Shown piece after piece: positions 3,724-34,166 of a stretch of 51,502 nucleotides of DNA (the first letter of the stretch is position 1; the number at the start of each line of letters is the position of its first letter). The notes under the pieces are model-generated. The model was given only the letters and a program-made list of their open reading frames with translations. It had not been told where the DNA came from and searched no databases. Location: the NCBI RefSeq assembly GCF_048403405.1, contig NZ_CP183133.1, one strand, 5' to 3'. This DNA comes from Escherichia coli. GTDB taxonomy: Bacteria; Pseudomonadota; Gammaproteobacteria; Enterobacterales; Enterobacteriaceae. Both the position numbers and the translations under genes were made by a program.

Positions 3724-4626
3724 GTGCACGGCAAGTGAACTCCGGCCCCTGGTCAGTTCTTATCGTCGCCGGATAGCCTCGAAACAGTGCAATGCTGTCC
3801 AGAATACGCGAGACCTGAACGCCTGAAATCCCAAAGGCAACAGTGACCGTCAGGCATTCCTTTGTGAAATCATCGACGCAGGTAAGACACTTGATCCTGC
3901 GACCGGTGGAAAGTGCGTCCATGACGAAATCCATCGACCAGGTCAGATTGGGCGCCGCCGGACGGAGCAGCGGCAGACGTTCTGTTGCCAGCCCTTTACG
4001 ACGTCTTCTGCGTTTTACGCCCAGGCCACTGAGGTGATAAAGCCGGTACACGCGCTTATGATTAACATGAAGCCCTTCACGGCGCAGCAACTGCCAGATA
4101 CGACGGTAGCCAAAACGCCTGCGCTCCAGTGCCAGCTCAGTGATGCGCCCTGATAAATGCGCATCAGCAGCCGGACGGTGAGCCTCATAGCGGCAGGTCG
4201 ACAGGGATAAACCTGTAAGCCTGCAGGCACGACGTTGCGACAGACCCTTAGCCTCGCACATGACTTCCACGGCTTCCCGCTTCTGGTCTGTCGTCAGTAC
4301 TTTCGCCCAAGAGCCACCTGAAGCGCCTCTTTATCCAGCATGGCTTCGGCAAGCAGCTTCTTGAGTCTGGCGTTCTCTTCCTCAAGCGACTTCAGACGCT
4401 TAACTTCAGGCACCTCCATACCGCCATACTTCTTACGCCAGGTGTAAACGTGGCATCGGAAATGGCATGCTTGCGGCAGAGTTCACGGGCGGGTACCCCA
4501 GCTTCGGCTTCGCGGAGATATTGATGATCTGTTCGTCGGAAAAACGCTTCTTCATGGGGATGTCCTCATGTGGCTTATGAAGACATTACTAACATCGGGG
4601 TGTACTAATCAACGGGGAGCAGGTCA
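3724..4626 (-). mobile_element. IS3-family (IS407-group-like) element, left part: IRL, orfA with a 1-nt deletion, 5' portion of orfB; cut by the Tn3-family IR
   Basis: orfA-like translation MKKRFSDEQIINILREAEAG...(frameshift near TFYTWRKKY)...; orfB 5' part MEVMCEAKGLSQRRACRLTGL...TDQGPEFTC; terminal TGACCTGCTCCCC read on the minus strand at 4614-4626. Confidence 0.7.
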
Positions 4627-10864: not shown

Positions 10865-12785
10865 TGTTAAATATGTCGCGGTAGGGATACCCGTTACCGG
10901 ATACCCCCCGCACAGATCCCGGCGTGCGCGATTTACGCACCGGGCTCCTGCCTCGGGTGTCTGGCGGTGAACCGCTCCACAGGCCATGGATGAAGAACCC
11001 GAACCCTTGGTAGCCATGCGGCTGCCAGTTTGTTTGCTTTCGTCCAGGTCGTATCATCCTTCTGGCTCCTGCGCCTGAGCGCCCGGCGCCAGAGGTTTGT
11101 TACGTGTGTCCTGAACTTCTGCATGGTGGGGAAGTTGCCCGGTACCGAGTGATAGTTCAGGTATCCCTGAACCACTCTCCTGAGCCATTTTCCCTGTTCG
11201 GGGATTGAGTAATGCCAGCGCCTTCGCAGACCGTCTTTGATGGCTTTCAGAGTTGCCGTCATCCGATCCCGGCGGGTCTTTCGTATCAGCATGAACCTGC
11301 CGTTGCGATCTTTCCCGCTGATGTGCGTGAACCCGAGGAAGTTGAACGTTTCTGGTTTGCCTTTTCCCCTGATGGCACGGTTTTCGGCAGCGAAGCGGCC
11401 GAACTCCATCAGACGGGTTTTCTCCGGGTGAACCGTGAGTCCGAACTCCCTCAGTCTGCGCTGCATGGCTATACGGAAGCGCCGGGCATCGTATCGTTTG
11501 TCGAACCCGATGACGATGTCATCGGCGTATCTGACCATTACCACATTGCCTGTGGCATAGCGACGTCGCCACTGATGCGCCCACAGATCGAAGACGTAGT
11601 GGAGGTATATGTTTGCCAGCAGCGGTGAGATGACCGCACCCTGTGGGGTGCCTTCCTCCGTTGCTCGCCATTGACCCTCCTCCAACGTCCCGGCTGTGAG
11701 CCACTTACGTATGAGCCTGATTACGCTCCGGTCGCCGATCCGATGCTCTGTGAACCTGATCAGCCATTCGTGGCTCACCCTGTCGAAGAACTGACTGATG
11801 TCGGCATCCAGTACCCAGTTTACGTTAGTGCGTACCAGCCCTGTGGCCAGTGCGTCCAGTGCATCGTGCTGGCTTCGCCCGGGTCTGAACCCGTATGAGA
11901 ACCCCATAAAGTCGTTTTCATAGACTGCGTTCAGGATTTTCACCAGCGCATACTGGACGATCTTGTCCTCCAGCGAGGCGATGCCGAGCGGGCGTTGTTT
12001 TCCATCCGCTTTTGGGATGTAGTGACGCCTGCCGGGCTGCGCCCTGTAGCTGCCCTGATGTAGCCTCCGGTGCAGATCTGTTATGTTGTTCTTCATGTTT
12101 CCGGCGTAGTCCATCCACCTGATGCCATCCACTCCGGCGGCCGCTTTCCTGCTCAGGGAGAGGAATGCGGCTTCCAGTGCTTCGACTGTCAGCAGGTGGA
12201 ACAATGCTGTAAACCGTTCTTTCTTCCGCTGCTTCGCAGCTTCCCGCACGCGTGACAGCCTCTGTGACATGCTTTCCCGGCTCTGTGTCCGGCGCATGTG
12301 TGGCTGTTCCGCGTTCCCCTTGGCCCCGCTCCTTCGCTCCACTGACTCCGCTCCTTTCGGGTTGTTCGCCTGCTTCGCCGCTACTATGAGCGAGTCCGAC
12401 TTCTCCTCTCCGTACATCACCGGCTATGACTCCTCGTCTTCCCGGTGCGGGCCGTCTCCGACACTGGCAGATGGTCAGAGGGGAGATCTCCCGGTTCCCG
12501 CGTAGAGATCGTATTGACATGCCAGGGTCTCAGACCCCGCCGGGTCCATGTGGCACTCGCAGTATCGCACCCTATGATGTTGCCTTCCGTTAACAGTACA
12601 ACGTCGGCACCCGGTAATTTAATATACATTTCGTGGCTCAATGGCTGGCCTGTCAACACCCCTGTCAACGCTTCGCCCCATACCTCGCGGTATGCAACGC
12701 ATGACTCGGGGACCTTGTGGATTGCTGGTCCTTCAATGGTCGGGGACTTTCACCCCTTGATCTCTACCGGTCTCCCGGCGAACAC
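10865..12785 (-). mobile_element. Group II intron (approximate boundaries) carrying an RT/maturase ORF
   Basis: Domain-V-like hairpin GAGCCCGGTGCGTAAATCGCGCACGCCGGGATC (minus strand, plus coords 10915-10947) overlaps the RT stop; about 490 nt of structured sequence lies 5' of the RT start; exact 5'/3' ends not resolved by eye. Confidence 0.5.
10933..12297 (-). CDS. Group II intron reverse transcriptase/maturase
   Basis: ORF translation has RT motifs (…KADGKQRPLGIASLEDKIVQ…GTPQGAVISPLLANIYLH…VRYADDIVIGF…) and a maturase-like C-terminus; start placed at MRRTQSRE (the ORF track extends to 12420). Confidence 0.8.
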   Translation of the reverse strand: MRRTQSRESMSQRLSRVREAAKQRKKERFTALFHLLTVEALEAAFLSLSRKAAAGVDGIRWMDYAGNMKNNITDLHRRLHQGSYRAQPGRRHYIPKADGKQRPLGIASLEDKIVQYALVKILNAVYENDFMGFSYGFRPGRSQHDALDALATGLVRTNVNWVLDADISQFFDRVSHEWLIRFTEHRIGDRSVIRLIRKWLTAGTLEEGQWRATEEGTPQGAVISPLLANIYLHYVFDLWAHQWRRRYATGNVVMVRYADDIVIGFDKRYDARRFRIAMQRRLREFGLTVHPEKTRLMEFGRFAAENRAIRGKGKPETFNFLGFTHISGKDRNGRFMLIRKTRRDRMTATLKAIKDGLRRRWHYSIPEQGKWLRRVVQGYLNYHSVPGNFPTMQKFRTHVTNLWRRALRRRSQKDDTTWTKANKLAAAWLPRVRVLHPWPVERFTARHPRQEPGA

Positions 12786-12800
12786 TGTATGTATAACCAG
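12785..12800 (+). promoter_or_regulatory. LexA-box-like operator (CTGTATGTATAACCAG) upstream of umuD
   Basis: Matches the CTGT-N8-ACAG SOS-box pattern with one half-site mismatch; 26 bp upstream of the umuD ATG. Confidence 0.5.
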
Positions 12801-12825
12801 TAAAATTAGAGTGTCAGGAGGAAAG

Positions 12826-13257
12826 ATGAAACTACAACTTTTCAGCACCGGGAAAGAACTCCCGCCACAGGCCCATCCATTGTTTGCCGATCTGGCCAGC
12901 TGCGGTTTTCCCAGCCCTGCTGCTGACTATGTCGAGTCCGATCTGGATCTCCATGATTACTGCATACGGCATCCGAGCGCGACGTACTACCTGCGTGCCA
13001 GCGGAGACAGCATGGCCGACGGCAGTCTGTACAATGGCGATCTGCTGGTTGTGGACAGTGCTGAAAAGCCGCGGCACGGCGATATCGTTGTCGCCAGCAT
13101 GCAGGGGGAGTTTACGGTGAAACGGCTTCTGCTGACGCCGCGACTGACGCTGCAGCCCATGAATGCCTCCTGGTCGCCGATTTATCCTGATCCCGACGAG
13201 CTGGATATCTTTGGCGTCGTCACGCATATCATCCACCGCCCGAGGGAGATGTACTGA
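12826..13257 (+). CDS. umuD: UmuD (translesion polymerase V accessory subunit)
   Basis: RBS AGGAGG before ATG 12826; translation [37 protein letters not shown]...[20 protein letters not shown]... resembles UmuD. Confidence 0.9.
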
Positions 13258-14528
13258 TGTTTGCCCTGGCCGATGTGAACAGCTTCTATGCCAGCTGTGA
13301 ACGTGTTTTCCGCCCGGATTTGAAAGGAAAGCCGATAGTCGTCCTGAGCAACAACGACGGGAATGTAATCGCTCGCAGTGCCGAGGCGAAGCCCTGGATC
13401 AAAATGGGAACTCCGTGGTTTCAGATAAAAAACGAAAGATACCCGGAAAAAATATATGCGTTTTCAAGTAATTATGAACTTTACGCCTCGATATCGGCGC
13501 GCGTGATGAACTGCCTGGAGGAACTGGCCCCCAGGGTGGAACAGTATTCAATTGATGAGATGTTCCTCGACCTGACCGGCGTGGAGCACTGTATGGGGCT
13601 TGAGGACTTCGCCCGGCAGCTGCGTCAGCAGGTGTATGACTGTACCCGCCTGACCATTGGCGTGGGCGCCGGACCAACGAAAACCCTCGCAAAATCAGCC
13701 CAGTGGGCCTCAAAAGAGTGGAAACAGTTTCATGGCGTACTCGCTCTGACCAGGGGAAATCCGCAAAGGACGCGGAAACTGCTTTCACTGCAGCCGGTTG
13801 AAGAAATCTGGGGGGTGGGTAACCGTATTGCACGCAAGCTAAATGTGCTGGGCATAAAAACCGCGCTCGATCTGGCTCTGACGAACCCGGCCTTCATCCG
13901 CAAAAATTTTTCTGTCGTCCTTGAGCGAACGGTACGGGAACTGAACGGGGAAAGCTGCCTTTCGCTTGAGGAAGCCCCTCCGACGAAACAGCAAATTGTC
14001 TGCAGCCGCAGTTTTGGCGTGAAGATCACGGAGTACGAGTCACTCCGTCAGGCTATCTGTCAGCACGCAGAGCGGGCCTCTGAAAAACTGCGTAAAGAGC
14101 ACCAGTATTGCCGGCATATTTCCGTTTTCATCAAAACGTCTCCGTTCGCCATTAAAGAGCCTTACTACGGCAACGTGGCTACGGAAAAACTTCTTACACC
14201 CACTCAGGACACCAGGGACATCATTGCAGCCGCTACAACGGCTCTGGAGCGTATCTGGAGGGATGGGCACCGGTATGCCAAAGCCGGAGTTATGCTGAAT
14301 GACTTCACCGGCTCCGGAGTTTCGCAGCTGCAACTGTTCGACGAACGCCCGCCACGCCCTCACAGTGCTGAGCTGATGAGGGTTCTGGACGGGATCAACA
14401 ACTCAGGGCTGGGTAAAGTATGGTTTGCGGGGCGGGGTATGGCCCCGGAATGGCAGATGAAACGGGAGATGCTTTCTCCTGCTTATACGACACGATGGTC
14501 AGATATTCCTGCAGCGAAACTGGCGTGA
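13257..14528 (+). CDS. umuC: UmuC (error-prone DNA polymerase V catalytic subunit)
   Basis: 423-aa [44 protein letters not shown]... (Y-family polymerase); ATGA overlap with the umuD stop. Confidence 0.9.
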
Positions 14529-14532
14529 AACT

Positions 14533-14609
14533 ATGGCGATTTCACCGTGAAATTCTCAACCTAAACTGCCTAATTACAATAAGTTAGATGTGAAATCGCC
14601 ATGGCGAAA
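14533..14609. other. P1-type parS-like centromere
   Basis: Heptamer boxes ATTTCAC/GTGAAAT and hexamer boxes TCGCCA/TGGCGA between the umuC stop and the parB stop (…GGCGATTTCACCGTGAAATT…GTGAAATCGCCATGGCGAAAT…). Confidence 0.55.
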
Positions 14610-15587
14610 TTATTGACTCAAATTTCTGTCAAGGACTTCGTTGATAGCCTTGTCCAGTTCATCCTGAATCACTTTTGACATACGGCTAAACTCATAAGTC
14701 AGCGTGCGCCCTTTCACACGCTTACGCGCGAACTTGTCCTTTTCTTCAAAAGACCAGAGTGGGGAAACCACTGACTTTTCCTTGGGAGATGGATCTATCA
14801 ATGCCTGAGATGCCTGAGAAATCAGCTTCAGAATACTGGCTTTCTGTTCGTCTTCTGGTCGCTCGCCATCACTCAAAATTGCATCGAGCTGAGCTGATAC
14901 AGACTGAATGAGTTCTTCAGGCGTTAATCCCTTTTCACCGAGTTTTTCATTAACTTCTAAAAGAAGTTTATAATCACTAAACGATAGCTCCGACTGAACC
15001 GGGAACAGAGAAATTAAGTCTTGCGGTACGGCCGCCGCCTGCAGCGCCCTGGTAACTTTAGCCTGAGATAATCCCTCCAGTTCAGCAATTTCCTTTTGAT
15101 TAAATCCGGACTCTTTAAGAGCGATCAATCTCAGACCAATCTCCCGAAGATTATGTTCTTTAGCTGTCTGGATATCTTTAGCCAGTTGGCGAGCTTCATC
15201 AGCTGATAAATGTTCTTCGGTAACCATTACATCAAGGCCTGTACGGACAAAAATTGCTGAGGCTCGCCGTCTTGAACCATCCAGTATCTCAATCCTTTCA
15301 CTTTGCTTAATACCAATACAGGGAAAGAACTGCTGAAACTTAATCGTCTGGATAATGGATTTCAGAGACTCCCTGGTCAGTGCAAGTTGATCTCTTCCAT
15401 TGTTTTCCTGGTTTACGAAGGTCTTACTTTCAACTTCAGATGCAGGCACCCGAACAAACCTGAACGTTACCTTCCTGCCGGTTTTTAAGGTAAATACCTG
15501 ACTTCTACCGGTGTCAGCCATTTCGAGCATTGACGCCTGAGTATTTAACTGTCTGCCGATGGTTTTTCTTTTCTCATTCGACATCAC
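14610..15587 (-). CDS. parB: ParB (P1 ParB-like centromere-binding protein)
   Basis: 325-aa ORF strongly resembles P1 ParB as I recall it (…IEILDGSRRRASAI…KEGLSQAKVTRALQAA…FARKRVKGR…). Confidence 0.9.
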   Translation of the reverse strand: MMSNEKRKTIGRQLNTQASMLEMADTGRSQVFTLKTGRKVTFRFVRVPASEVESKTFVNQENNGRDQLALTRESLKSIIQTIKFQQFFPCIGIKQSERIEILDGSRRRASAIFVRTGLDVMVTEEHLSADEARQLAKDIQTAKEHNLREIGLRLIALKESGFNQKEIAELEGLSQAKVTRALQAAAVPQDLISLFPVQSELSFSDYKLLLEVNEKLGEKGLTPEELIQSVSAQLDAILSDGERPEDEQKASILKLISQASQALIDPSPKEKSVVSPLWSFEEKDKFARKRVKGRTLTYEFSRMSKVIQDELDKAINEVLDRNLSQ

Positions 15588-16789
15588 ATACCTCCGTTAG
15601 TACGAATGAACTCGATGCGATCAAAGACTGCCTTCGCAAAGTCTTCCGCTGCTGATTTTGCGCTTTTTAGTGCCTCTGTACTTCCATCATAGGTTGCTGG
15701 ATTTGCTGAAATAACTGTGTCAAAAGTCTCCCCACAACGTTCGAAACCATCCAGTCTTGGCAGAACCATGTCTAGCATATCGGCACCGAAAACCTCTTTG
15801 GCCTGACTATGGCAAATTTTGTGATCAGACTTGTTCAGGATCTTGGACATGAAGCCGACATTACCGATGAGATTGCAGGTGTGCCCATCCATTTCGATGG
15901 AATCTATGAGGGCAGGGAGGCTGGCCACAAACTTCAGGGAAGAATGAAAATCAACCGTCGCCGGTGGAAGAGGGGTCAACATCAGGTCTGCCGCCCCAAT
16001 GCAGTTTTTCAGGAACGCATCAAGGTGAGGACCACTATCAAGGAAAATAAAGTCGTAGTCATGCTGGAGCTTGTCGATAATGTTCTCTTTAAGCACCGCA
16101 TGAATATTTTTCCCTGGCAGATGTTCTTCACACAATCCCTTCCAGCCTTCAGCAAGGAATGCATCGTCAATGGAAGCGGGGATTACATCAACACCAGGGA
16201 TAATAGACGGTACTATAAAATCGGAAAGTAATTCTTCACGAGACACGTTCTGGAGCATGGCCTGAGCAGCCGTATTTTCAACCAAGCCCACTGAATTCTC
16301 ATGGCTCAGGAACATTGTCAGAGATGCCTGCGGATCGAAATCGATGGCCAGAATACGCAGGTCTTCGAACAGAAGCTGAGGATGAGCTCGAAAAGCATGT
16401 GATAATGAAGCGGTAGAAACTGTCTTGGAACCACCACCTTTAAGATTACATACAAAAATCGTAAAGGCTTTATCGAAGCGATCCCTGTACTTCGGTACTT
16501 TACGATGGTTATACAGATCGATGACATTCTGAATCGTCATCGCGTATTTCATCGTATTACCAGAAGGTTTCTTTTTAAAAATGTAGCCACCGGCTTCCAT
16601 TTCGGACACAGCATACTCAACACTGCCTTTACTGAGCTTAGGCAGCTTATACAGAGCGGCTTTGCTGTATTCCTGATAGAACTCGGTAAGCTTCAATTCC
16701 TCTTTTTGCTGTCGGATACTTTCGCTCAAAGATGTCAGAAGCTTACCTGCACGTGTAGCGACTTTCCGTAACTGCTCAATATTGTCCAT
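15584..16789 (-). CDS. parA: ParA (type Ia partition ATPase with N-terminal HTH extension)
   Basis: 401-aa ORF with deviant Walker A NLKGGGSKT; 4-bp overlap with parB. Confidence 0.9.
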   Translation of the reverse strand: MDNIEQLRKVATRAGKLLTSLSESIRQQKEELKLTEFYQEYSKAALYKLPKLSKGSVEYAVSEMEAGGYIFKKKPSGNTMKYAMTIQNVIDLYNHRKVPKYRDRFDKAFTIFVCNLKGGGSKTVSTASLSHAFRAHPQLLFEDLRILAIDFDPQASLTMFLSHENSVGLVENTAAQAMLQNVSREELLSDFIVPSIIPGVDVIPASIDDAFLAEGWKGLCEEHLPGKNIHAVLKENIIDKLQHDYDFIFLDSGPHLDAFLKNCIGAADLMLTPLPPATVDFHSSLKFVASLPALIDSIEMDGHTCNLIGNVGFMSKILNKSDHKICHSQAKEVFGADMLDMVLPRLDGFERCGETFDTVISANPATYDGSTEALKSAKSAAEDFAKAVFDRIEFIRTNGGM

Positions 16790-17182
16790 TTATCACCTCA
16801 TGACGTTTTTTGTCATTTTGAACAAAAAGTGTCATGTTGCAAGAAAAAAATCATATTGTTTTGATTTCGCTCTCAACAGAAGGGGGATGAAGCTCGACGG
16901 GCGTGCTACTAAATCACACTGCAGCAACACGCAGACGCACTTTTGACCATCAACAGCAACTCATACAAAAGGGCTTTGAGAAAGGTATTCAACTTGCAAG
17001 ACAGGAGAGTCATTCAGAAGGATTCTGATTTTAGTTACGACCAGTGCAATGCTGAGCCTTATGTATCAGCGCTCGCCGCAGCCATGTAACCGAGCGTAGC
17101 GAGCGAACTGGCGAGGAAGCGAAGAGGAACCGTTCCGGCAGATAGCTCTTACGCTCAGCACAAGAAGAGTTTTCCATCCTCT

Positions 17183-17590
17183 GTGGGAAACAGGTCAACT
17201 TTAATGGACGCTCCGGACTATGGGAAACAGGTCAACTTCGCGGACGGCCCGGACTATGGGAAACAGGTCAACTTCACGGGCGGCCGGGAGTGTGGGGAAC
17301 AGGTCAACTTCGCGGACGGCCCGGATTATGGGAAACAGGTCAACTTCGCGGGCGGCCGGGACTGTGGGAAACAGGTCAACTTTGCAGACGGCCCGGACTG
17401 TGGGAAACAGGTCAACTTCGCGGGCGGCCGGGAGTGTGGGGAACAGGTCAACTTCGCGGACGGCCCGGACTAAGGGAAACAGGTCAGCTTCTCGGACGGC
17501 CCGGACTATGGGAAACAGGTCAACTTCTCGGACGGTCGGGAGTGTGGGAAACAGGTCAAGTTAGGCAAGCACTATGGGAAACACAGCAAG
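17183..17590. repeat. Iteron array downstream of repB: about 11 units of about 36 bp with core TGTGGGAAACAGGTCAACTT
   Basis: Core GGGAAACAGGTCAAC recurs at 17185, 17222, 17258, … (period 36-37). Confidence 0.8.
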
Positions 17591-17649: not shown

Positions 17650-18372
17650 CTATTGTTTTTTATCAAGAAAATTAAACAGCAAGCGACCATCTTCTTCAGT
17701 GGTATATGTTACCTTTAATGGCGTCTTCTCATTAATTTTCTTCAGAGCAGGTTCCAGGAAGGTACGCTTCATTTCAGCAATATTGTTTTTCTGCGAGGCA
17801 GGGAGCATAAACCTTTCACATAACCAGTCATGTGTGGTGATCCAGACACCAGTGCTCCGGAACTGACACAGGCTTTCATAAAGCCGGATGACACGAACAC
17901 TATTAAGCTGGCCACAGTCATAGAGAGAATAGGTAGTGAACTGGGAGGTTAAGCCGACCAGGAATGGCATGACCTTGTAGTTAAATTCAATCTGCCAGGA
18001 ACCCCGGCCTCGCTTCATTCCTGCTTCAGCCAGCCACGGACGTTTAACTTCTTCAAACTCACCTTCTTTTGGATAAAAGGTAACCGTTGATTCGCCCAGA
18101 GCATTTACCCCAGCCTTCACATCACGACTGGCGACAGACGTAGCGACATTGAAGTATTTGACGTAATCGGAAACGCTGATTTTGAAGAGCGGCAATACGT
18201 CAGAGTCATCTTCCTGGCTGTCATTAAAATAGGCCTGCATGAGGCATAACCACAGCACACGTTTTGCCTGAAGAGGCAGGTAATATGCAGCTTCGGTCAA
18301 TTCGTTAGATTGCTTTATACTGGCGCGTTTTTTAAACGTTTTAGTAGCTGGCAAGAGTGCTTGAGTATCCAT
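17650..18372 (-). CDS. repB: Replication initiator RepB (Rep_3 / RepE-like)
   Basis: Translation from MDTQALLPATKTFKKRASIKQSNELTEAAYYLPLQAKRVLWLCL…RLYESLCQFRS… parallels F RepE; start set at the inner ATG (18372) because the upstream in-frame ATG (18516) lies inside operator repeats. Confidence 0.8.
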   Translation of the reverse strand: MDTQALLPATKTFKKRASIKQSNELTEAAYYLPLQAKRVLWLCLMQAYFNDSQEDDSDVLPLFKISVSDYVKYFNVATSVASRDVKAGVNALGESTVTFYPKEGEFEEVKRPWLAEAGMKRGRGSWQIEFNYKVMPFLVGLTSQFTTYSLYDCGQLNSVRVIRLYESLCQFRSTGVWITTHDWLCERFMLPASQKNNIAEMKRTFLEPALKKINEKTPLKVTYTTEEDGRLLFNFLDKKQ

Positions 18373-18720
18373 TTCAATGCCTATGGGTAAATTTTTACCC
18401 ACCCATAATGACAGTGAAAACAGAAATTGCAAGCTATCGCGATACTTATCCACCGGAAAAATCTGCACTTTATCCACAAGTGGATAATTGAGAACTGAAC
18501 TTGACCTCTTTCCCATAGCTTGTTGATGCGTATCCCATAGCTTGTTGACACAAAACCCACTGATACGTGATTAATTTCCCATATTATGTTTACCAGTTGC
18601 CCATACAGGCCCCCTCTCAGGCCGCACTGTACGCGGCTTTCAGGCTCCCTAAAAGATGTAAAATAAAGAAAAAGAATAAAAAAGTACTTTATAAAAATAT
18701 GCCCGTGGATAAGTGGATAA
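18373..18720. promoter_or_regulatory. repB operator / putative oriV
   Basis: Inverted DnaA boxes TTATCCACAAGTGGATAA (18470-18487); two 16-bp direct repeats TCCCATAGCTTGTTGA (18501-18540); AT-rich tract 18640-18700; tandem DnaA boxes GTGGATAAGTGGATAA (18705-18720). Confidence 0.55.

Positions 18721-30805: not shown

Positions 30806-34166
<3,361 letters not shown>

Follow-up and report, generated by a model that had tools for sequence, protein, structure and literature searches.

In the window (the whole 51,502-nt stretch of Escherichia coli DNA that was analysed), two convergent genes, umuC and parB, are separated by a very short gap. Does this gap hold the centromere of a plasmid partition system, how far does such a site extend, and which ParB proteins would be expected to read it? 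A preliminary description, made from the letters of the sequence, had placed a P1-type parS at 14533..14609. The analysis reported here makes it highly probable that 14525..14607, on the minus strand, is parS, a full-length representative of the P1par family that serves an IncR-type plasmid as the cis-acting centromere of its type Ia parABS system.

Carbapenemase and ESBL genes are found on IncR and related backbones in Klebsiella, Enterobacter, Salmonella and E. coli, and the stable inheritance of these backbones would depend on parS. A search of the literature for a parS position on IncR plasmids turned up none, just generic statements that ParB binds parS, and parS is unannotated in the tables of the matching records, as given in the PLSDB feature table, which is incomplete. 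Exact coordinates and a map of the boxes open the way to correct annotation of parS and to targeted curing or incompatibility tools; views on how such centromeres work are left unchanged by the site described here.

The plasmid backbone and its partition proteins

Sequence matches identify the DNA around the gap as an IncR-type Klebsiella plasmid backbone. The 4.6 kb at 12400..17000 is 100% identical to many plasmids of Klebsiella, Enterobacter and E. coli, with matches in at least 5000 plasmid records, and an annotated example among them is typed as an IncR replicon carrier. The gene order in that example is ltrA (of a group II intron), umuD, umuC, convergent ParB and ParA, and a Rep3-type replication initiator. 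The corresponding features in the window are as follows.

12826..13257, plus strand: umuD
13257..14528, plus strand: umuC, a Y-family polymerase gene and the convergent neighbour of parB, with a natural C-terminus and its end within box A4
14610..15584, minus strand: parB, encoding the centromere-binding protein of 324 aa
15584..16789, minus strand: parA, encoding a type Ia Walker ATPase of 401 aa with an N-terminal HTH
16790..16870, minus strand: putative par promoter/operator, assigned from its position, which is homologous to that of P1 parOP
17650..18516, minus strand: repB, Rep3-type

The parA and parB genes overlap at their stop and start codons, and both are intact and full length. The gap between the stop codons of parB and umuC, previously given as 80 bp, measures 81 bp (14529..14609). 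The putative operator region contains short repeats, and its alignment with P1 and with a pSLT-like sequence gives a patchy, partial likeness to P1 parOP (TGCAaCAT ... TTCAAAA).

Several other elements are found in the same backbone. Between parA and repB, at 17181..17260, repeats in direct orientation, about 21 and 19 nt long, recur with a periodicity of 36-37 bp (CTGTGGGAAACAGGTCAACTT, GGACGCTCCGGACTATGGG); they are probably iterons of the IncR origin. A group II intron, made up of an open reading frame for the ltrA reverse transcriptase/maturase (10933..12420) and an Rfam match to group-II D1-D4 (12525..12750, 186.6 bits), occupies 10933..12750 on the minus strand, directly upstream of the umuD promoter region. 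Further away, at 4210..4327 on the minus strand, an Rfam hit (131.6 bits) to the ribosomal frameshifting element of IS1222 points to an insertion sequence of the IS3 family.

Both partition proteins are P1-like, as had been supposed. ParA shares 69% identity with P1 ParA over 398 aa with no gaps, and its Pfam domains (HTH_54 and AAA_31) give the type Ia pattern. ParB is 54% identical to P1 ParB over its full length and matches PF08775 with 170 bits; its residues 137-322 match the solved structure of P1 ParB(142-333) (PDB 1ZX4/2NTZ, E=1.8e-62). The stretch that forms the HTH recognition element, GLSQAKVTRALQAA, is identical to that of P1, and Asp283 aligns with the discriminator residue of P1, Asp288. 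In P1, the A boxes are read by the HTH domain of ParB and the B boxes by the C-terminal dimer domain, through its beta1-beta2 and beta2-beta3 loops, while the centre of parS is bent by IHF, which strongly promotes ParB binding (PMC2910045, PMC5016525, PMC10999674).

Anatomy of the site

The P1 reference (NC_005856) has each ParB and IHF site of parS annotated, and the window aligns to it without a gap over 14607..14525, with every box in register. This supports the P1-type identity originally proposed and defines a complete unit of 83 bp, B1-5-A1-36-A2-1-A3/B2-2-A4, in which all spacings (5, 36, 1, overlap and 2) are those of P1. An alignment of the A-box and B-box layout with P7 parS is likewise free of gaps and has identical spacings. 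The proposal was to fall if alignment with known parS sites failed to show such a layout, and it stands up to that check. Reading along the parB strand from the stop codon, the sequence is TAA-tt-TCGCCA-tggcg-ATTTCAC-(36 nt)-ATTTCAC-g-GTGAAATCGCCA-ta-GTTTCAC. Its parts are listed below in that order.

14525..14607, minus strand: complete parS, 83 bp
14602..14607, minus strand: box B1, TCGCCA, identical to P1 B1, 2 nt past the parB stop codon, with no variation in the IncR/pSLT clade
14596..14601, plus strand: extra inverted B-like box, TCGCCA on the plus strand and TGGCGA on the parB strand
14590..14596, minus strand: box A1, ATTTCAC, as in P1
14554..14589, minus strand: AT-rich centre of 36 nt, the same length as in P1
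14574..14586, minus strand: IHF-like core TAACTTATTGTAA (reverse complement TTACAATAAGTTA), at the offset of the annotated P1 IHF site
14547..14553, minus strand: box A2, ATTTCAC (ATTTCAA in P1 and the pSLT-like sequence)
14539..14545, minus strand: box A3, GTGAAAT, an inverted heptamer, as in P1
14534..14539, minus strand: box B2, TCGCCA, identical to P1 B2 and overlapping A3
14525..14531, minus strand: box A4, GTTTCAC, a 6/7 match to ATTTCAC (the same in P7; ATTTCAC in P1)

The heptamers and hexamers that had been noticed in both orientations downstream of parB are where they were said to be: ATTTCAC matches at 14539..14545 (plus), 14547..14553 (minus) and 14590..14596 (minus), and TCGCCA or TGGCGA at 14534..14539, 14596..14601 and 14602..14607. 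The limits first given for the site were less exact. They enclose the boxes from B1 to B2 and miss A4, and their last two positions (14608..14609), which separate the parB stop codon from B1, are a 2-nt spacer outside every box. The umuC stop codon, TGA (14526..14528), sits inside box A4, so that the centromere overlaps the end of the gene; the contact with umuC that had been described as abutment is real, and closer than was thought.

Variants of A4 within the IncR/pSLT clade are GTTTCAC, GTTTTAC and ATTTCAA, and the stop codon is kept in all of them. Being imperfect and constrained by the stop codon, A4 may contribute little, and in P1 the boxes A2, A3 and B2 alone suffice for ParB binding (PMC10999674).

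The left arm contains a feature of its own. The extra inverted B-like box fills the 5-nt spacer between B1 and A1 and overlaps the first base of A1; because the spacer and that base together read TGGCGA, TCGCCATGGCGA is palindromic, and the left-arm TGGCGATTTCAC that results exactly mirrors GTGAAATCGCCA (A3-B2) in the right arm. This box may provide the left arm with a second A-B unit. On the sequence evidence, the site is a canonical P1par-family centromere on an IncR backbone, with the extra inverted B-like box as a minor architectural variation.

The same symmetry could be given a different meaning. A 13-nt perfect inverted repeat spans the site (ATGGCGATTTCAC/GTGAAATCGCCAT, 14533..14545 / 14590..14602), there is also a 7-nt palindrome (ATTTCACgGTGAAAT), and the 81-bp gap has no other terminator; the repeats might therefore serve chiefly to end the umuC and parB transcripts, as an RNA hairpin or bidirectional terminator, with the likeness to parS being secondary. 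A scan of 14529..14609, however, revealed no stem of terminator type with a T-run behind it, and the repeats coincide exactly with A and B boxes in the P1 register. Furthermore, the 36-nt centre varies across the family in sequence and not in length, which fits a protein-bent loop better than an RNA stem. A principal role in termination is thus highly improbable.

The IHF-like core agrees with seven of the nine specified positions of WATCAANNNNTTR, the same score as that of the proven site in P1, and is a candidate for IHF binding.

Comparison with characterized partition systems

P1 parS (incB), of type Ia, is the founder of the P1par family, and its order of parA, parB and parS is that of the window. 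The placement of parS directly downstream of parB had been recognized at the outset, and the distance from the parB stop codon to the site is 2 nt in the window and 4 nt in P1. The two sites have B1, B2 (TCGCCA), A1 (ATTTCAC), A3 (GTGAAAT), all spacings, the offset of the IHF-like core and the equivalent of Asp288 in common. They differ in A2 (ATTTCAC in the window, ATTTCAA in P1) and A4 (GTTTCAC and ATTTCAC, respectively), and the window, unlike P1, has the inverted B-like box TGGCGA and arms that form a perfect inverted repeat of 13 nt. Their surroundings are also distinct: the right flank is convergent umuC in the window but the promoter region of phage gene 23 in P1, and the replicon is IncR (Rep3-type RepB) as opposed to IncY.

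A closer likeness is found in the virulence plasmid pSLT, for which the 93,960-bp IncFIB/IncFII S. Typhimurium plasmid pSTY2-1898 (described as ‘pSLT-like’) stands in here for the reference sequence. Its ParB is 90% identical to that of the window, and the DNA from umuC (samB) through parS to parB is 87% identical. Both plasmids have an 81-bp gap and the core GGCGA of the inverted B-like box, and they agree in B1, A1, A3 and B2. Ten of the 83 positions of parS differ, eight of them in spacers or in A4; A2 and A4 are both ATTTCAA in pSTY2-1898, and its replicon is IncFIB/IncFII whereas that of the window is IncR. Judged from these identities, the par system of pSLT is the window's nearest relative among systems with experimental data. 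The pSLT parVP locus was defined genetically by Cerin & Hackett in 1993, as cited in passages of PMC4697819 and PMC7746676, and disruption of pSLT parA leads to mislocalization of the plasmid (PMC7746676).

The sites of P7 and of Y. pestis pMT1 have the 83-bp architecture of the window and its 36-nt spacing between A1 and A2, and A4 of P7 is also GTTTCAC. Their box B is different, TTCCCA in P7 and TCACCA in pMT1, as is the residue at position 288 of P1 (Arg in P7 and Asn in pMT1), and their ParB proteins are only about 43% identical to that of the window. In P7 and pMT1-type loci, a GC-rich hairpin with a T-run (for example GGATGCCGAAGAGCATCCTTTTTT) lies between the parB stop codon and parS (loci L012 1373..1412, L014 1373..1411 and L003 1543..1587 of the sample described below). 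In the IncR/pSLT, Phytobacter and P1 loci, by contrast, B1 follows the parB stop codon after 2-4 nt and there is no hairpin/T-run structure in that place.

Conservation across the P1par family

DNA downstream of parB was sampled at 19 loci. The sample comprised P1, P7 and Cronobacter phage JK004, four further plasmids of the IncR/pSLT clade (87-99% DNA identity), Y. pestis pMT1, and plasmids from Citrobacter, Klebsiella, Pantoea, Phytobacter, Cronobacter and Shigella. A rigid frame of 83 bp (6+5+7+36+7+1+7/6+2+7), anchored only on A3-B2 and with gaps disallowed, recovers B1, A1, A2, A3 and B2 in 12 diverse members of the family (plasmids and phages, among them P1, P7 and pMT1), and the distance between A1 and A2 is 36 nt in every one of the 12. 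Two loci depart from it. In Pantoea vagans pPant3, the 200 bp downstream of parB contain no recognizable A3-B2 anchor, and in pSF5, which is pWR100-like, the left arm is off the rigid frame, a misfit consistent with the atypical site of pWR100.

Boxes and spacers have changed at very different rates. In the IncR/pSLT clade (87-100% DNA identity), one of 32 core-box positions varies compared with 10 of 31 spacer positions (Fisher p=0.003), and among the nine Asp-type members the counts are 5/32 and 30/31 (p=1e-11), although the sequences are phylogenetically related, which makes these p-values optimistic. The contrast is unmistakable and is the pattern that purifying selection on the parS boxes would leave. 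The predicted site for IHF is retained as well: the best match to the IHF consensus has the same offset (21) as the P1 IHF site in eight of nine Asp-type loci, with 7-8 of the nine specified positions, and the TAA...TG columns of the core are conserved across the family. The pSLT-like, Phytobacter and Cronobacter plasmids retain the inverted-B motif, [T/C]GG[C/T]GA, while their other spacer positions have diverged; in the family alignment, P1, P. soli, P7 and pMT1 lack it.

These patterns bear on the question of whether the site is still in use. A decayed, non-functional remnant of parS could be carried along with the backbone, and the degenerate A4, overlapping a coding stop codon, might be taken as a sign of it, as might the statement in one review of IncR plasmids that par modules are missing from most of them (PMC12310702). 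That review contradicts itself on the point (sections 6 and 8), since it also describes parAB as commonly carried, and the sequence data obtained here support the second statement. Decay is hardly credible for a locus that is present in at least 5000 plasmid records, whose parA and parB are intact and full length and whose core boxes are kept within the IncR/pSLT clade while the spacers change; in addition, the related system of pSLT mislocalizes its plasmid once parA is disrupted (PMC7746676).

If the site is a functional centromere, as the conservation of its boxes argues, then homology with P1 suggests how it would work. Host IHF would bind the AT-rich centre and fold the DNA into a U-turn. 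Dimers of ParB could then contact both arms, with the HTH domains on the A boxes (A1 in the left arm; A2, A3 and A4 in the right) and the dimer domain at the C-terminus on the hexamer B boxes (B1 and B2). ParB bound to the arms would nucleate a larger ParB assembly, which in turn would stimulate nucleoid-bound ParA-ATP, so that the plasmid copies move apart before division.

Specificity of recognition

The aspartate of P1 ParB that reads box B2 is said to be Asp288, following work by Dabrazhynetskaya et al. in 2009. As summarized in PMC10999674, box B, and B2 above all, fixes the ‘species’ specificity and partition incompatibility of P1 and related sites, with an Asp in P1 ParB reading the second base of B2; the statements made here on residue 288 and box B draw on that summary together with our own table of covariation. 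Across 18 loci, the ParB residue in the column of P1 residue 288 covaries perfectly with box B2, and B1 shifts with B2, giving the following combinations.

Asp with TCGCC(A/T): P1, this window, the pSLT-like plasmid, the Phytobacter plasmid, the Cronobacter plasmid, P. soli and Shigella pSF5
Asn with TCACCA: pMT1 and two enterobacterial plasmids
Arg or Lys with TTCCC(A/T): P7, the IncFIB/IncFII Klebsiella plasmid (pKPC-2) and Pantoea sp. Nvir
His with TCCCCA: JK004

The window has Asp283 and TCGCCA in both B boxes, which is the combination of P1, and the motif K-D-[KR]-F-A-R-K-R-V-K-G-R around the equivalent of Asp288 is conserved. With both boxes and the residue in agreement, membership of the P1 ‘species’ is predicted, and we consider it probable that the parS described here is recognized by P1 ParB and is incompatible with P1par. 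There is some experimental evidence from the nearest relative that points in the same direction. In Salmonella LT2 without a P1 parS, P1 GFP-ParB (expressed from pALA2705) forms foci that are lost when pSLT is cured, an observation shown in a single supplementary figure, with binding that its authors termed ‘aspecific’ (PMC4697819, S1 Fig).

The one rival to be taken seriously is a functional P1par-family centromere with a ‘species’ of its own: IncR ParB would recognize it, P1 ParB would bind it weakly or not at all, and it would not be incompatible with P1. At 54% identity to P1 ParB, the protein of the window could contain determinants besides residue 288 that shift specificity, and the extra inverted B-like box in the left arm is missing in P1. 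Reportedly, pMT1, P7 and P1 are each unique in specificity despite being highly similar (Youngren et al. in 2000), which would favour a private specificity. On the other hand, pWR100, with a box B like that of P1, is said by Sergueev et al. in 2005 to have P1 specificity. In the present data, both B boxes are those of P1, the Asp288 equivalent is conserved with its surrounding motif, residue and box covary without exception over the 18 loci, and the foci of P1 GFP-ParB in Salmonella need pSLT (PMC4697819). A private specificity is therefore rather unlikely, and P1 specificity remains the preferred reading.

If P1 specificity is correct, it would have practical consequences. Clinical IncR, pSLT-like and related plasmids, in their thousands, would show partition incompatibility with P1-like phage-plasmids, and they would light up with P1 ParB reporters. 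Labelling with P1 ParB-GFP and parS would probably be subject to cross-reaction in hosts that carry plasmids of the IncR or pSLT type.

The junction between parS and umuC

The convergent neighbour raises questions of its own. It was considered that umuC might be truncated, or might end in codons derived from the par flank, and this was rejected: homologues on other plasmids stop at the same alignment position, which indicates that the C-terminus is natural. Two weak promoter-like matches occur in parS, not above what is expected from shuffled sequence (4 found, 4.3 expected). A LexA-box-like sequence, TACTGTATGTATAACCAGTA, lies at 12783..12802, about 24 nt upstream of the start of umuD, so umuDC is probably SOS-regulated and transcribed towards parS, and SOS-induced transcription would run into the centromere.

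This arrangement is found elsewhere in the family. A convergent gene for a Y-family polymerase (umuC) follows parS in other par loci (L013 1372..1518, L014 1372..1508 and L019 1369..1590). In the pMT1-type (Asn/TCACCA) loci of Citrobacter pCf76 and Klebsiella CRKP_8, the 83-bp unit is separated from the umuC stop codon by 13-16 bp; in Y. pestis Angola pMT (L012, downstream of 1372), parS is followed by unannotated DNA that resembles the 3' end of umuC; and in the Phytobacter plasmid, umuC comes after parS at a greater distance. The 3' ends of umuC are about 80% identical in DNA, while the ParB proteins are only about 42% identical, which suggests that par cassettes have been exchanged beside a conserved umuDC module.

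The tight junction thus recurs in two specificity clades, as an overlap of A4 with the stop codon in the window and as a spacing of 13-16 bp in pMT1-type loci. That the abutment of umuDC on the centromere, with no terminator between them, has a function beyond simple synteny is a long shot, and any role of SOS transcription into the centromere is speculation. For example, the complex of ParB and IHF, with ParB spreading from it, might hold back read-through and expression of the mutagenic polymerase, in the manner of a roadblock or silencer. In the other direction, convergent transcription induced by the SOS response might upset the partition complex for a time and in this way link plasmid segregation to DNA damage.

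Beyond box A4, a further likeness to P7 was observed. The window (14516..14531, GTTTCACGCCAGTTTC) and P7 (L003 1663..1680, GTTTCACGCCTGTTTT) have GTTTCACGCCnGTTT in common; these bases are the last codons of umuC in the window, and the pSLT-like sequence fits less well. The likeness could be a coincidence or the remnant of a common right flank of par.

Stray matches in the window

The boxes of parS stand out against the rest of the window. The 29-nt right half, ATTTCAMNGTGAAATCGCCANNRTTTCAM, occurs once even when up to three mismatches are allowed and in none of 100 shuffled sequences, and the left half, TCGCCA-N5-ATTTCAC, has one exact occurrence. Chance is ruled out as the origin of the boxes by the shuffles and by the register that they keep in family members.

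One part of the site recurs. A third exact copy of the 12-mer GTGAAATCGCCA is present at 33702..33713 on the minus strand, inside fecR. A second centromere in this position was rejected: no further boxes stand in the parS register, and the same 12-mer is found in the chromosomal fecR of E. coli. The copy is most likely due to chance, and it could be a weak stray site for ParB.
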